Positions 8,567 through 52,699 of a DNA stretch of 64,000 nucleotides are shown piece after piece. The notes under the pieces were generated by a model. The model was not told the DNA's origin. It saw nothing but the letters and a program-made list of their open reading frames with translations, and did no database searches. The position numbers and the translations under genes were made by a program. Where the stretch lies: the NCBI GenBank assembly GCA_019057385.1, contig JAHQJS010000006.1, positions 773,038 through 837,037 on the forward strand, read 5' to 3'. Numbering within the stretch: position 1 is the stretch's first letter; each line of letters opens with the position of its first letter. This stretch comes from Candidatus Borrarchaeum weybense. GTDB taxonomy: Archaea > Asgardarchaeota > Sifarchaeia > Borrarchaeales > Borrarchaeaceae.

Positions 8567-8839
8567 GTCAATTACCCCACCTTAAAGGGTAGGGGCTTGG
8601 GTCGTGAGATCTGAGAGCAATTAGTTGATTAGCCTAAGAGAGGTCATATAGTGTATGACGGTATCTACGTTATCAGGAGAGTTAAAGAACACACCAAGGG
8701 ATGCTTCTCTAGTCCCTTGCTCTGTAAACGGTGGTTTAAACAGAGAGGAAACGCTCAGTGATCATCGTAGAGTACTGACTGATAACCTTGGCGAAGAGAA
8801 CCAACCTCCTGTGACGCACGTTAAAGGAGGAGATAGGAC
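8567..8839 (+). ncRNA. omegaRNA scaffold (HEARO) of IscB element 1; guide lies immediately 5'
   Basis: Core nearly identical to the scaffolds at 15087-15365 and 52428-52699; CAAGGGA/TCCCTTG stem. Confidence 0.8.
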
Positions 8840-15086: not shown

Positions 15087-15365
15087 GTCCTATCTCCTCC
15101 TTTAACGAGTGTTAAAGTCGGTTGGTTCTCTTCGCCAAGGTTATCAGTCAGTACTCTACGATGATCACTGAGCGTTTCCTCTCTGTTTAAACCACCGTTT
15201 ACAGAGCAAGGGACTAGAGAAGCATCCCTTGGTGTGTTCTTTAACTCTCCTGATAACTCAGATACCGCCATGTGTGTTTCACCACGACCTCTCTTAGGCT
15301 AATCAACCAATTACTCTTGTTCCTCACGGGACAAGCCCCCCTCACTTGTTAGGGGGGTGATTGAC
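15087..15365 (-). ncRNA. omegaRNA scaffold of IscB element 2
   Basis: Core nearly identical to 8567-8839. Confidence 0.8.
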
Positions 15366-29397: not shown

Positions 29398-29700
29398 TCT
29401 ATATGCAAATACCCGTGTTTCTTTTTATCTAAAAAAACTCTGGACAATCATATACACGTTCAAGTTTTTTAGAAGCTAATGCTTTGCAGTTTTATAAAAA
29501 AAGATTTCACAAACCTTATTCAGCGTAGCAATCCTGCTCGCTAGATAACGTCGTTTTCGACAAAAAGGTATTACTCTGTTATAGCTTTTTGTATCACGCA
29601 TCGGTGTTTAAATCAGCGCGCGCGATTGTATTGACATAATGCTGTCTATAGCTCTATAGAGTAATCAAGAGCTATATAATAAAGTGGACATTTTTCTTGC

Positions 29701-29717
29701 AAAAAAAGGCTTAAATA
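29701..29717 (+). promoter_or_regulatory. Putative archaeal BRE/TATA promoter for the ncRNA candidate
   Basis: AAAAAAAGGC-TTAAATA about 25 nt upstream of the terminal stem. Confidence 0.5.
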
Positions 29718-29738
29718 GTTTTAACTATAAGGTATGGA

Positions 29739-30026
29739 TGGCAACTTGTGATCGGTAAAGAACCTTAGACGGAAAGAAAAACTGACACAAAGAAACATGG
29801 TGAAGAATCGGCCCTGAACTATGAAGTAAGTGTGTACGGCCGGACAGGATTCTGGAAAGATAAGGGGAAGATCGAGAATGAGCCTTAGAGGAAAAATCAA
29901 ACTAAGGTGAAGTGTAAGCCGTAGCACGAAAGTGAAACGGTTGTCGACTGAGAGGTCGAAAGCACGCGCGACGTAAAAATCGCGTAACCTGGAGCGAGGA
30001 AACCAAAAAGGCACAGCGGGTTGCCA
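29739..30026 (+). ncRNA. Unassigned structured ncRNA candidate (~288 nt)
   Basis: 5' TGGCAACTTG pairs with 3' CGGGTTGCCA; internal GNRA hairpins; TATA upstream and T-tract downstream; no plausible sense ORF. Confidence 0.6.
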
Positions 30027-30081
30027 CTTTTCTTTTGGGATGTTTTTTTAACATCCTTTTTTTTTGAAAACAGCTAAATAG

Positions 30082-31077
30082 TCAAGTTAAGATGTCGCTG
30101 ATGATAAGCGAGCAGCAGAGTTCTTTATGAATTATTTTAAGGTCAAGTGACTGTGCTTCTTCTACACCCGCATCGGTGATATAAGCAATTCCGTTTATTC
30201 CAGCTCGAATTGCGAGAATGTCAGTTTCTTCCTTGTGATATCCCTTTGGTCTGGCACAGCCTAACATAACTGGCTTATCCTGAAAAGTCAAACGTGCTAT
30301 AGTGATAATTTTGGCAATGGTTTCAGGTGATGGTGGCGTGACATTCTCCATTGGTGTTCCTTCTAGGGGCATTAATGCAACTATCACAATGGCATCAGGG
30401 TCATATTTAGACAGCATTTCTAATGCATTGATTTCTCCGTCTAGAGTGCCGTAATTGAGACCAACGACGACATGTGGTACAATTGGAATGTTAAATTCCT
30501 TAAGAAGTCTAATAGATTCTTCATATTTCTCGGGTGTTGCGTTTATATGGTAAACTGTTTCAATTGTGTCTTGACTGGCGATCACATCAAGCATAGCGGC
30601 ATCAATATGTGAATCTGCAAGAATTTTCGCGGTTTCCTTGTCGATAAGTCCTGTATGAACAACGACTTTTAATCCAAAACGTTCTTTTATAACTTTTAGA
30701 GCATTTGTATACTTTAAAAGAGGGACAAATCCGTGTTTATTTGCGCCTCCACTAATTAAAACACCCTTAGAACCCTTTTTGCTAAGTTCTTCACATAATT
30801 GAACTAATTCATCAGGAGAGCGTGCGGGTTTCATTGATTCTAGAATTTTAGACTGACAGTGATCGCAATTAAGAGCACATGCAGTTCCTGTAATACTTAT
30901 AGGCACAAAGGCGTTCGGAGATTCCTGCTTAAAACTTTCAATCTCATAATGAACTATGTTGGGAGCATAATTCCATAACAGGTTTCCAAAGTTTTTTCTA
31001 CGAAGATTAAAAGCATTTTCCATGTATTTTTTAAGTTCTGAGGAACTAGAGTTCAGAATCATCTTTGCTTGCGACAT
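30082..31077 (-). CDS. lipS1: Radical SAM lipoyl synthase subunit LipS1
   Basis: CALNCDHC (CxxxCxxC), GCAR and C-terminal CC motifs characteristic of LipS1. Confidence 0.8.
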   Translation of the reverse strand: MSQAKMILNSSSSELKKYMENAFNLRRKNFGNLLWNYAPNIVHYEIESFKQESPNAFVPISITGTACALNCDHCQSKILESMKPARSPDELVQLCEELSKKGSKGVLISGGANKHGFVPLLKYTNALKVIKERFGLKVVVHTGLIDKETAKILADSHIDAAMLDVIASQDTIETVYHINATPEKYEESIRLLKEFNIPIVPHVVVGLNYGTLDGEINALEMLSKYDPDAIVIVALMPLEGTPMENVTPPSPETIAKIITIARLTFQDKPVMLGCARPKGYHKEETDILAIRAGINGIAYITDAGVEEAQSLDLKIIHKELCCSLIISDILT

Positions 31078-31432: not shown

Positions 31433-32743
31433 ATGGAGGTAAAATCCATGAAAGAAGTAAAGATTCAGTTACCGGTTAAAGATCTTCCAAAAAGCTGGTA
31501 TAATATTATACCTGATCTTCCACAACCGCTTCCACCACCTAAAGAACCTGAAACAGGACCTTCTCGACTTGAATTTCTCTCTAAAGTCATTGTTAAAGAA
31601 TGTTTAAAACAAGAGTTTTCAGATCAAAGCTGGGTACCAATACCTGAGGAATTAAGAGAGTTATATATACAGGCAGGTAGACCAAGACCACTACGTCGAG
31701 CTAAAAGACTTGAAAAATTACTGAAAACTCCAGCACATCTTTATTGGAAGAGGGAAGATTTATCACCAACAGGAAGTCACAAAGTCAACACTGCACTAGC
31801 CCAGTTATATTATGCAGTACAAGAAGGTGTAGAAGGAGTAGTTACTGAAACTGGTGCTGGGCAATGGGGTACTGCATTGTCCTATGGTGCAAGTTTGATG
31901 GAATTACCATGTGTAGTTTTTTGGGTACGTAACGTGCATGATTGGAAGGTCGATCGAAGAACTCTAATGAAAATGTATGGCGGTGAGGTTCATCCTTCGC
32001 CAAATCAGTTAACTGAAGTCGGCAGAACTATTCTCAAAGAAAATCCAGATCATCCAGGGTCGTTGGGTATCGCAATTTCCGAGGGGTTAGAATATGCTGA
32101 AAAACATGATGGATATGCGTATTCTCTGGGAAGCGTGCTAAATCACGTACTGATGCATCAAACAATAATCGGTCTCGAAACAATCGAACAATTCAACATA
32201 GTAGATGAACAACCAGATCTGCTAATAGGCTGCTTCGGAGGTGGATCGAATTTCGGTGGTTTCACATTACCTTTCATTGGGGAAGTATTAAACGGTAAAC
32301 GAGAATGTGAATTTCTTGCATCTCAGTCTTTGGCAGCACCAAACATAAGTCAGGGTGAATACCGCTATGATTTTGCAGATCACGCAGGAAAAACACCTTT
32401 GTTGAAAATGTACACCTTAGGTCACGATTCAAATATGCCACCAATATTCGGAGACGGTCTCCGATACTCTGGAGCATCACCAATTCTAAGCCTATTGAGA
32501 AATCTAGGACATATTAAAACAAGAACCTACCCTGTAGACGAGAAAGACGTATTCGAGGCTACACGGACATTCCTTCAAACAGAAGGATTTTTACCTGCAC
32601 CAGAATCCTCTTATGCTATCAGAGCCATGATTGATGAAGCGATAGAGTGTAAGAAAACCGGCGAGGAAAAAACCATCGCCTGTAATGTCTCAGGGCATGG
32701 ATTTCTTGACATCTTTGGCTATAAAAGTGTGTTAAACCTGTAA
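31433..32743 (+). CDS. trpB2: TrpB2-type tryptophan synthase beta-like PLP enzyme
   Basis: WYNI.PDLP, SPTGSHKVN, TETGAGQWG, GSLGIAISE, PAPESS, SGHG. Confidence 0.92.
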   Translation: MEVKSMKEVKIQLPVKDLPKSWYNIIPDLPQPLPPPKEPETGPSRLEFLSKVIVKECLKQEFSDQSWVPIPEELRELYIQAGRPRPLRRAKRLEKLLKTPAHLYWKREDLSPTGSHKVNTALAQLYYAVQEGVEGVVTETGAGQWGTALSYGASLMELPCVVFWVRNVHDWKVDRRTLMKMYGGEVHPSPNQLTEVGRTILKENPDHPGSLGIAISEGLEYAEKHDGYAYSLGSVLNHVLMHQTIIGLETIEQFNIVDEQPDLLIGCFGGGSNFGGFTLPFIGEVLNGKRECEFLASQSLAAPNISQGEYRYDFADHAGKTPLLKMYTLGHDSNMPPIFGDGLRYSGASPILSLLRNLGHIKTRTYPVDEKDVFEATRTFLQTEGFLPAPESSYAIRAMIDEAIECKKTGEEKTIACNVSGHGFLDIFGYKSVLNL

Positions 32744-52427: not shown

Positions 52428-52699
52428 GTCCTATCTCCTCCTTTAAATTGCTTTAAAGTCGGTTGGTTCTCTTCGCCAAGGTTATCAGTCAGTACTCTAC
52501 GATGATCACTGAGAGTTTCCTCTCTGTTTAAACCACCGTTTACAGAGCAAGGGACTAGAGAAGCATCCCGTGGTGTGTTCTTTAACTCTCCTGATAACAT
52601 AGATATCGTCATAAACTATATGACCTCTCTTAGGCTAATCAACTAATTGCTCTTACTCCTCACGGAATAAGCCCCTACCTTTTGGGTGGGGTATTTGAC
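52428..52699 (-). ncRNA. omegaRNA scaffold of IscB element 3
   Basis: Core nearly identical to the other two iscB scaffolds. Confidence 0.8.

Follow-up and report, generated by a model that had tools for sequence, protein, structure and literature searches.

A candidate new family of structured non-coding RNA from the Asgard archaeal lineage Borrarchaeum

Genomic locus and homologs of the RNA

The element described here is a predicted non-coding RNA gene of the Asgard archaeon Candidatus Borrarchaeum weybense, located in a window of 64,000 nucleotides (nt), the whole stretch of DNA analysed, at G000:C6:773038-837037, where G000 denotes the genome (4.18 Mb, 8 contigs) and C6 the contig. The RNA lies between an upstream gene for a DUF2085-like protein and a convergent gene for a radical S-adenosylmethionine enzyme, identified as LipS1 with the NCBIfam model NF053742 (251 bits, cut-off 230), and is present once in the 4.18-Mb genome. 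It is numbered from window position 29738 (nt 1) on the + strand, the strand being assigned because many conserved G.U pairs would become A.C mismatches on the opposite one. Purines make up 67% of its bases (A 37%, G 30%), and its G+C content is 47% compared with 37% across the window. An earlier examination of the letters without database searches (the sequence-only reading) had proposed an independently transcribed, unclassified non-coding RNA at this position, and this is upheld by a predicted promoter, a T-tract, nine syntenic homologs, and the lack of an Rfam match, with all strings named in that reading found where it placed them or at most 1 nt away. It is likely that the region is a genuine stand-alone non-coding RNA gene with its own promoter, belonging to no catalogued family.

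BLAST searches of 60 relatives recovered the RNA in three of the four other genomes of the genus, with identities of 85, 80, and 76%, and gave no true match outside the genus; in the fourth genome (G003) the RNA is missing solely because the contig ends just past the upstream gene. One further version was obtained from a pattern scan of metagenomes, and four were reached through homologs of the DUF2085-like protein encoded upstream, among them two much more divergent versions located at L096:3945-4210 (179 bits) and L097:4005-4291 (176 bits; the same as L100). Contigs bearing the RNA carry the names Candidatus Borrarchaeum yapensis, Candidatus Borrarchaeota, and Promethearchaeota, which bears out the probable Asgard host proposed in the sequence-only reading. 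Wherever the interval is assembled in a related contig, the RNA has the DUF2085-like gene on one side and convergent LipS1 on the other; this holds for all nine distinct versions, which range in length from ~256 to 291 nt.

A covariance model of the RNA (R1) run over 150 Asgard genomes gave true matches in the genus Borrarchaeum alone, as did a broader model (R2) run over 40 relatives, and a descriptor of the sarcin-ricin and K-loop hairpin found no true match beyond the genus in 400 Asgard genomes. The sister family, represented by a single genome (80% complete), likewise yielded no match, and weak matches in other families were rejected as lying inside protein genes (GatB, a lipoate ligase). 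False positives of the descriptor scan include a repeated element with GAAAGCCCTCGACGAGCCCGAGAGGGAAGAGCTAAGTA at the ends of ~10 contigs of genome G081 (e.g. C49:51-88 and C67:27-64). The spread of the RNA, as far as searched, is restricted to the Borrarchaeum lineage of the Asgard archaea.

Secondary structure and covariation

The final structure was refined by hand and counted on the nine distinct sequences (alignment A6). RNAalifold applied to four sequences had already predicted 65 pairs, with compensatory changes in 15. The refined structure comprises 62 pairs, with 95.8% of cells paired over the nine sequences compared with 29–36% when the 3′ partners are slid by 1–3 columns, and 23 of the 62 pairs are changed on both sides. 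None of 500 shuffles reached the observed covariation score. The minimum free energy z-scores are −2.9 for the copy in the window, −6.4 for L097, and −5.7 for L096.

In the proposed fold, the terminal helix P1 (11–12 bp) would close a three-way junction with two arms (Table 1). The 5′ arm (P2-P3-P5-P6) would carry a sarcin-ricin-type loop, a K-turn-like apex, and a pseudoknot, and the 3′ arm (P4-P11-P10) would end in a compact three-way junction, GGU-GAA-[P8]-[P9]-A-ACC, bearing the P8 and P9 hairpins. The changes in P1 are G-C to C-G and U.G to A-U, with the P4 strands GAGCCUU/AAGGCAC becoming GAGUUC/GAACUC. The junction of the 3′ arm takes a minimal form in G001, reading GGU-GAA-[GUGACU GAGA GGUCAC]-[P9]-A-ACC, in which the P8 internal loop is entirely missing.

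Several of these helices had been recognised in the sequence-only reading. The pairing that it drew between the two ends of the RNA is P1, which covaries, the element TCGACT-GAGA-GGTCGA (29944-29959) is conserved as P8b with its invariant GAGA tetraloop, and CGCGA/TCGCG (29967/29980) is conserved as P9, with four covarying pairs. The helix CCTTAG/CTAAGG (29883/29902) and its alternative partner at 29762 did not survive the comparison, as this pairing occurs in the present genome only and clashes with the covarying helices P4 and P10.

Sarcin-ricin and K-turn-like modules

The internal loop between P5 and P6 fits a sarcin-ricin-type motif, the canonical sequence of this loop E or bulged-G element being AGUA/GAA (PMC1865062). 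A88-G89-U90-A91 lies opposite G55-A56-A57 in the correct register, within an asymmetric loop (7 nt versus 6 nt), and is invariant in the nine sequences, with the extra nucleotide on the AGUA side corresponding to the bulged G. The chance of an AGUA/GAA match in register, estimated from base composition, is less than 1 in 1000.

At the apex of P6, the RNA has the layout stem-GAA-GA-AUCGGCCCU-GA-stem, with a 3-nt bulge (G65-A66-N67) followed by the potential pairs G68.A80 and A69.G79, and the four purines are invariant in the nine sequences. The standard kink-turn (K-turn) bound by L7Ae consists of a stem, a 3-nt bulge, and two trans G.A pairs (PMC5539422). The P6 apex resembles a K-loop or k-junction, as the loop on its far side runs into the pseudoknot. 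A gene for L7Ae is present in the genome (G000:C6:319257-319532), and binding of L7Ae to the K-turn-like apex is our most specific prediction, though a tentative one that we hold to be slightly more likely wrong than right. Two further K-turn candidates were dropped: a K-junction of G13-A14 and G143-A144 at the main three-way junction, since G13-A14 is replaced by AC in L096 and AA in L097, and a second K-turn at GGU-GAA-GU/A249, since the covarying helix P8a engages G175 in a pair with C228.

Pseudoknot

The apical loop of P6 is predicted to pair with the strand just 3′ of P5, forming a pseudoknot. This pairing, listed as TCGGCC/GGCCGG (29808/29838) in the sequence-only reading, is retained in all nine sequences. 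In L096, where the loop reads UCGGUC and its partner GACCGA, a C-G pair is replaced by U-A, and this double change falls within two otherwise invariant segments. Additionally, a U.G pair becomes U-A in three sequences. The alignment is not biased towards the pseudoknot, as this helix is included in neither covariance model. Rival nested pairings proposed by RNAalifold (nt 45-47/100-102 and nt 103-106/115-118) are broken in L096, L097, or L042, and the pseudoknot is the favoured arrangement.

We had initially dismissed the UCGGCC/GGCCGG pairing on steric grounds, and revised this view in light of the compensatory change in L096. The steric doubt stems from the join of only 2 nt between P5 and the partner strand, with the pairing strands ~50 Å apart in a straight P5-P6 stack. 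Geometric reasoning suggests that this tension reflects either two alternative conformers or a sharp bend where P6 meets the internal loop.

Promoter, upstream block, and 3′ end

The RNA would be transcribed from its own archaeal B recognition element (BRE)/TATA promoter, with transcription ending at the oligo-U tract. Both elements had been pointed out from the sequence, and both are present and conserved, the BRE/TATA-like box being invariant in five species. The AAAGGC+TATA layout of the box also occurs upstream of a gene for tRNA-Glu. In an intergenic alignment of the five species, conservation covers the RNA, its promoter box, and a block of ~80 nt upstream, and the remainder is hardly alignable in the divergent species. 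The upstream block, which contains a GC-rich GCGCGCG box, is kept in all five including the divergent G001, and the intergenic DNA farther upstream is not. Each element of the block is unique in the 4.18-Mb genome, with no other locus carrying them, and no regulon could therefore be inferred; the block may be an operator or regulator site, or a second (tandem) promoter. Between the RNA and LipS1, a hairpin followed by a T-run is kept in G004, and is not kept in G002 or G001, and would serve as a bidirectional terminator.

Table 1. Features of the RNA gene and its surroundings, in RNA numbering and in positions of the window.
Feature	RNA positions (nt)	Window positions	Strand	Description
RNA gene		29738..30039	+	Body ~29738-30026, then U-tract CUUUUCUUUUGGG; single copy, nine syntenic homologs, no Rfam match
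P1	2-12/279-289	29739-29749/30016-30026	+	Terminal helix; 100% paired in nine sequences, 2 pairs changed on both sides
P2	15-19/134-138	29752-29756/29871-29875	+	Opens the 5′ domain; U-A to C-G in four sequences, one pair seen as G.U, G-C, and A-U
P3	26-28/126-128		+	5′ arm
P5	48-52/94-98	29785-29789/29831-29835	+	3 of 5 pairs changed on both sides, in four sequences
Internal loop AAGAAA		29790..29795	+	Opposite AAGUAAG (29824-29830); fits the sarcin-ricin/loop E motif
P6	59-64/81-86	29796-29801/29818-29823	+	Hairpin with 16-nt apex GAAGAAUCGGCCCUGA
Apex loop UCGGCC	71-76	29808..29813	+	Pairs with GGCCGG (nt 101-106, 29838-29843); 100% paired in nine sequences
P4	143-149/271-277	29880-29886/30008-30014	+	Closes the 3′ domain; 4 pairs changed on both sides
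P11	153-154/266-267		+	3′ arm
P10	169-171/250-252	5′ strand pairs with 29987-29989	+	100% paired
GGU-GAA-GUG		29906..29914	+	5′ strand of P10, 3-nt joiner, and 5′ strand of P8a; three-way junction of the 3′ domain
P8a	175-177/226-228	3′ strand 29963-29965	+	100% paired; 2 covarying pairs in L096
Inserted hairpin AGCCGU-AG-CAC-GAAA-GUG-AA-ACGGUU		29917..29942	+	This genome only; variable 5′ side of the P8 internal loop
P8b hairpin CGACU-GAGA-GGUCG	208-212/217-221	29945..29958	+	GAGAG invariant in nine sequences; closing U.G to C-G in L097
P9 hairpin GCGCGA-CGUAAAAA-UCGCGU	229-234/243-248	29966..29985	+	4 of 6 pairs changed on both sides
Conserved upstream block		29618..29699	+	Holds GCGCGCGATTGTATTGACA, the inverted repeat TCTATAG-CT-CTATAGA (29645-29660), and TATA-like GAGCTATATAA (29669-29679)
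BRE/TATA-like promoter GCAAAAAAAGGCTTAAATAG		29700..29719	+	Unchanged in five species; variable ~20-nt spacer, then the conserved start of the RNA
T-tract CTTTTCTTTTGGG		30027-30039	+	Directly after the RNA body; conserved
GGGATG-TTTTTTTAA-CATCC hairpin, then T9		30037..30065		Read from the sequence; between the RNA and convergent LipS1
LipS1-family lipoyl synthase		30082-31077	-	NF053742, 251 bits

Comparison with known RNA families

A cmscan search with 4227 Rfam families at their gathering thresholds gave no match in the RNA region, and at E ≤ 10 the 1.1 kb around the RNA gave chance-level matches only. For box C/D RNAs, the permissive scans produced just chance-level alignments to sR44 and sR11 (11.0 and 10.4 bits; E values of 9.5 and 4.1). 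The sequence-only reading saw neither a convincing helix 8 of signal recognition particle (SRP) RNA nor the P4 helix of RNase P RNA here, and had named such an Rfam search as a check; the search agrees, with no match to RF01857 or RF00373 in the region, and the genuine SRP RNA (G000:C3:11011-11326, 168.6 bits) and RNase P RNA (G000:C5:351144-351523, 207.9 bits) lying elsewhere in the genome. We consider it probable that the RNA constitutes a well-supported new family of structured non-coding RNA.

Other identities were rejected in turn. A disguised 5S ribosomal RNA (rRNA) is dismissed by the 5S rRNA found elsewhere in the genome (77.6 bits), and an rRNA mimic by the RNA having only chance 8-11-mers in common with 16S, 23S, 5S, SRP, or RNase P RNA. 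A box C/D small RNA was rejected as the RNA lacks correctly spaced C (RUGAUGA) and D (CUGA) boxes flanking guides of ~12 nt, a Y RNA as the genome has no match to the Ro60/TROVE protein (PF05731), and a hammerhead-like CUGA...GAAA in P8 as it has no stem II and its GAAA is not conserved.

Other RNA genes and neighbouring genes were recorded alongside. A gene for a TrpB-like pyridoxal phosphate enzyme (31433-32743, + strand, 579 bits) comes after LipS1, and the window holds three full-length HEARO RNAs (the IscB omega-RNA family, RF02033; 121–127 bits) at 8567-8805 (+), 15121-15365 (-), and 52462-52699 (-), so that IscB-type elements are abundant in this Asgard genome. The 16S gene (G000:C5:332567-335232) spans 2666 nt against 1478 model positions, and the 23S gene (335393-340196) 4804 nt against 2987, and both must therefore contain large insertions, whether introns or expansion segments. 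ARAGORN found only 17 transfer RNAs (tRNAs) in the genome, six of them in a tight array at G000:C1:19435-19900, together with a candidate tRNA-Pyl at C7:143743; many archaeal tRNAs (e.g. those with introns) were probably missed by this program, and contig C1 may be foreign DNA, the contamination estimate for the genome being 7%.

Discussion

The RNA is probably a lineage-restricted structural RNA, a scaffold of a ribonucleoprotein (RNP) that may bind L7Ae. As such, it would act in trans as a stable RNP scaffold, with proteins recognising its invariant purine-rich modules, and would not act as a long antisense guide. A bolder form of this proposal, which we regard as unlikely though worth stating, makes the RNA the core of a lineage-specific Asgard RNP machine, possibly catalytic, with its active centre formed by a pseudoknot kinked at the K-turn and flanked by the sarcin-ricin module. 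To our knowledge, the combination of a K-turn-kinked pseudoknot with a sarcin-ricin module has not been described in any known RNA class. An RNA of ~270 nt with a pseudoknot, invariant unpaired purines, and rRNA-like docking modules usually proves to be a ribozyme or the core of an RNP. Among known organisms, the Asgard archaea are the nearest relatives of eukaryotes, and their repertoire of non-coding RNA is almost unexplored beyond rRNA expansion segments and guide RNAs. The narrow distribution limits the general importance of this family, and its complexity makes it a good experimental target.

Several points weigh against the scaffold proposal. The RNA was linked to no pathway. The counts of paired and covarying positions are biased towards the helices counted, as alignment A6 was fitted to a model that holds most of them, and most of the covariation comes from three to four diverged lineages (G001/L101, L096, and L097), representing few independent events. 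The apex of P6 is K-turn-like by its sequence, and the pair flanking its bulge (64:81) is U-A in four of the nine sequences and C.A or G.A in the other five. Borrarchaeum has no extra paralog of the L7Ae family, carrying two genes, as does every Asgard genome searched. The transcript, too, is a prediction from the DNA as regards its promoter, its ends, and its stability. Furthermore, geometric reasoning suggests that the pseudoknot and a straight coaxial rod of P5, the sarcin-ricin loop, and P6 are mutually exclusive and cannot both form, and therefore one or more of the three modules may have been assigned wrongly or belong to an alternative conformer.

The scaffold proposal has to be weighed against a base-pairing regulatory small RNA (sRNA), the purine-rich single strands of which would bind pyrimidine-rich sites in messenger RNA, possibly with an Sm-like protein on the 3′ U-tract. 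The high purine content of the RNA, its long conserved unpaired stretches rich in A and G, its U-rich 3′ end, and its isolated position with a promoter of its own would all suit such a regulator. However, ten covarying helices and ~270 nt represent far more structure than known base-pairing sRNAs need, and genome-wide 13-mer antisense matches to the RNA are at chance level save for one motif, with no outstanding match of at least 13 nt. The sole repeated match, the 12-14-mer ACATGGTGAAGA(A), was rejected as a target, being a coincidence with ~10 coding sequences for TnpB (the NMVKNH motif). We consider a regulatory sRNA doubtful on this evidence. Pairing with rRNA fares no better, with duplex energies of six conserved segments of the RNA against the rRNA operon equal to those against 40 random genomic chunks, and a guide in rRNA processing was rejected on the same comparison. 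The TnpB-like coding sequences are closely related to one another (e.g. C4:114291, C4:970081, C5:74766, C6:303427, and C7:537271 of G000) and have ...ITNMVKNH.LAKSISDAGWGQLM.FTEYKAEEAG... in common.

A catalytic RNA, either a new type of ribozyme or the RNA component of a catalytic RNP, with the pseudoknotted invariant core as its active site, appears quite unlikely. Large orphan RNAs with complex folds are often catalytic or RNP cores, and the large multi-junction pseudoknotted fold, the absolutely invariant unpaired purine blocks, and the invariant GAGA loop are in keeping with this. Set against these features, the RNA resembles no ribozyme family in Rfam, its distribution is very narrow, and the analysis turned up neither a substrate nor a cleavage-site signature nor an associated gene.

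Highly improbable is an atypical box H/ACA-like guide, composed of P5 as lower stem, the internal loop as pocket, P6 as upper stem, the K-loop apex, and the ACA at 29844-29846. The layout is suggestive, with a 5-8-bp stem, an internal loop, a 6-bp stem, and a K-loop, and an ACA follows the hairpin in all sequences. In archaeal H/ACA RNAs the ACA usually lies 14–16 nt 3′ of the upper stem, whereas here (nt 107-109) it lies 20 nt away and is internal to a 290-nt RNA, the 3′ end of which is locked in P1. The strands of the pocket, moreover, have no complementary site in 16S or 23S rRNA at full length or as 5+5, 4+4, 6+3, or 3+6 bp, and the pocket is itself the exact sarcin-ricin sequence motif.

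The sequence-only reading had drawn attention to the hairpin at 29917-29942 as resembling domain V of group II introns and the internal stem-loop (ISL) of U6, from which a group II-derived or U6-like catalytic fragment acting in trans would follow, with the hairpin binding catalytic metal as a homolog of domain V. A free-standing catalytic hairpin of this kind would bear on the origin of the spliceosome, and the claim fails comparison with the homologs. The hairpin is real in this genome, with a basal AGC, an internal loop, and a GAAA tetraloop as in domain V and the U6 ISL, and we take the domain V of ai5-gamma to be similar to AGCCGUA...GAAA...ACGGUU. Conservation of the AGC/GNRA hairpin in homologs had been set beforehand as the test, and it is missing from eight of the nine versions, present here as a 24-27-nt insertion unique to this genome. 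The corresponding P8 segment of L097 holds another, different insert of ~20 nt. The loop of this L097 hairpin, CUUGC-CGUAAAAA-GCAGG, is identical in sequence to that of P9, which points to an origin by local duplication. The P8 internal loop tolerates lineage-specific insertions, and the domain V-like hairpin is outside the functional core.

The detailed form of the hairpin appears to depart from domain V as well. The domain V consensus has an AGC triad, a 2-nt bulge on the 3′ side, a 5-bp upper helix, and a GNRA loop in ~34 nt, whereas the inserted hairpin has a 2x2 internal loop (AG/AA), a 3-bp upper helix, and 26 nt in total. Models of group II introns (Intron_gpII, RF00029) and of U6 gave no match at E ≤ 10 in the 1.1-kb scan or in a scan of 71 nt centred on the hairpin, the latter matching no Rfam family. 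Across the whole 4.18-Mb genome Intron_gpII gave no match at E ≤ 0.1, reverse transcriptase genes not being searched for, and a trans-acting fragment would therefore have no partner intron. The RNA, including its conserved core, also lacks an ACAGAGA box. A link to group II introns or the spliceosome is not supported, and a trans-acting catalytic fragment of this descent has a negligible likelihood.

That the region holds no RNA gene is scarcely credible: a small minus-strand protein gene (29721-30014, 97 aa) or an untranslated-region element of a neighbour might be read from the existing open reading frame and the converging LipS1 gene, but the frame has no Pfam match, is split over frames in the homologs at 59–69% identity compared with 74–96% for neighbouring proteins, and meets length differences among homologs that are not multiples of 3, with the G.U pairs fixing the + strand, the conserved promoter lying directly upstream of the RNA, and LipS1 on the opposite strand.

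The scaffold proposal is best judged beside known RNAs. Ribosomal RNA offers the same local modules, each of a protein-docking type known from rRNA: AGUA/GAA in register, GA/GA next to a 3-nt bulge, and a hairpin capped by a GAGA tetraloop. In contrast to rRNA, the RNA has no local likeness to its own 16S, 23S, or 5S beyond the chance matches noted above, and sets these modules in a novel scaffold. Clients of L7Ae among stable archaeal RNP RNAs are documented (PMC5539422). Like these RNAs (RNase P, SRP, H/ACA, and C/D), the RNA has a BRE/TATA promoter of its own, a terminal helix joining its ends, and a K-turn or K-loop-like GA/GA element at a hairpin apex, with a size near that of SRP and RNase P RNA. 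It differs from them in showing no likeness by covariance model in a genome with its own SRP and RNase P RNAs, in the lack of C/D boxes, a usable H/ACA pocket, or, judged by Rfam, the P4/CR motifs of RNase P, and in its confinement to one lineage where they are universal. The large bacterial orphan RNAs OLE, GOLLD, ROOL, raiA, and HEARO differ from the RNA in sequence and structure, and the RNA is archaeal and single-copy, with no associated mobile element or dedicated protein gene. What it shares with these bacterial RNAs is its length, a pseudoknotted fold of many helices, strong covariation, a narrow distribution, and its discovery through sequence analysis.

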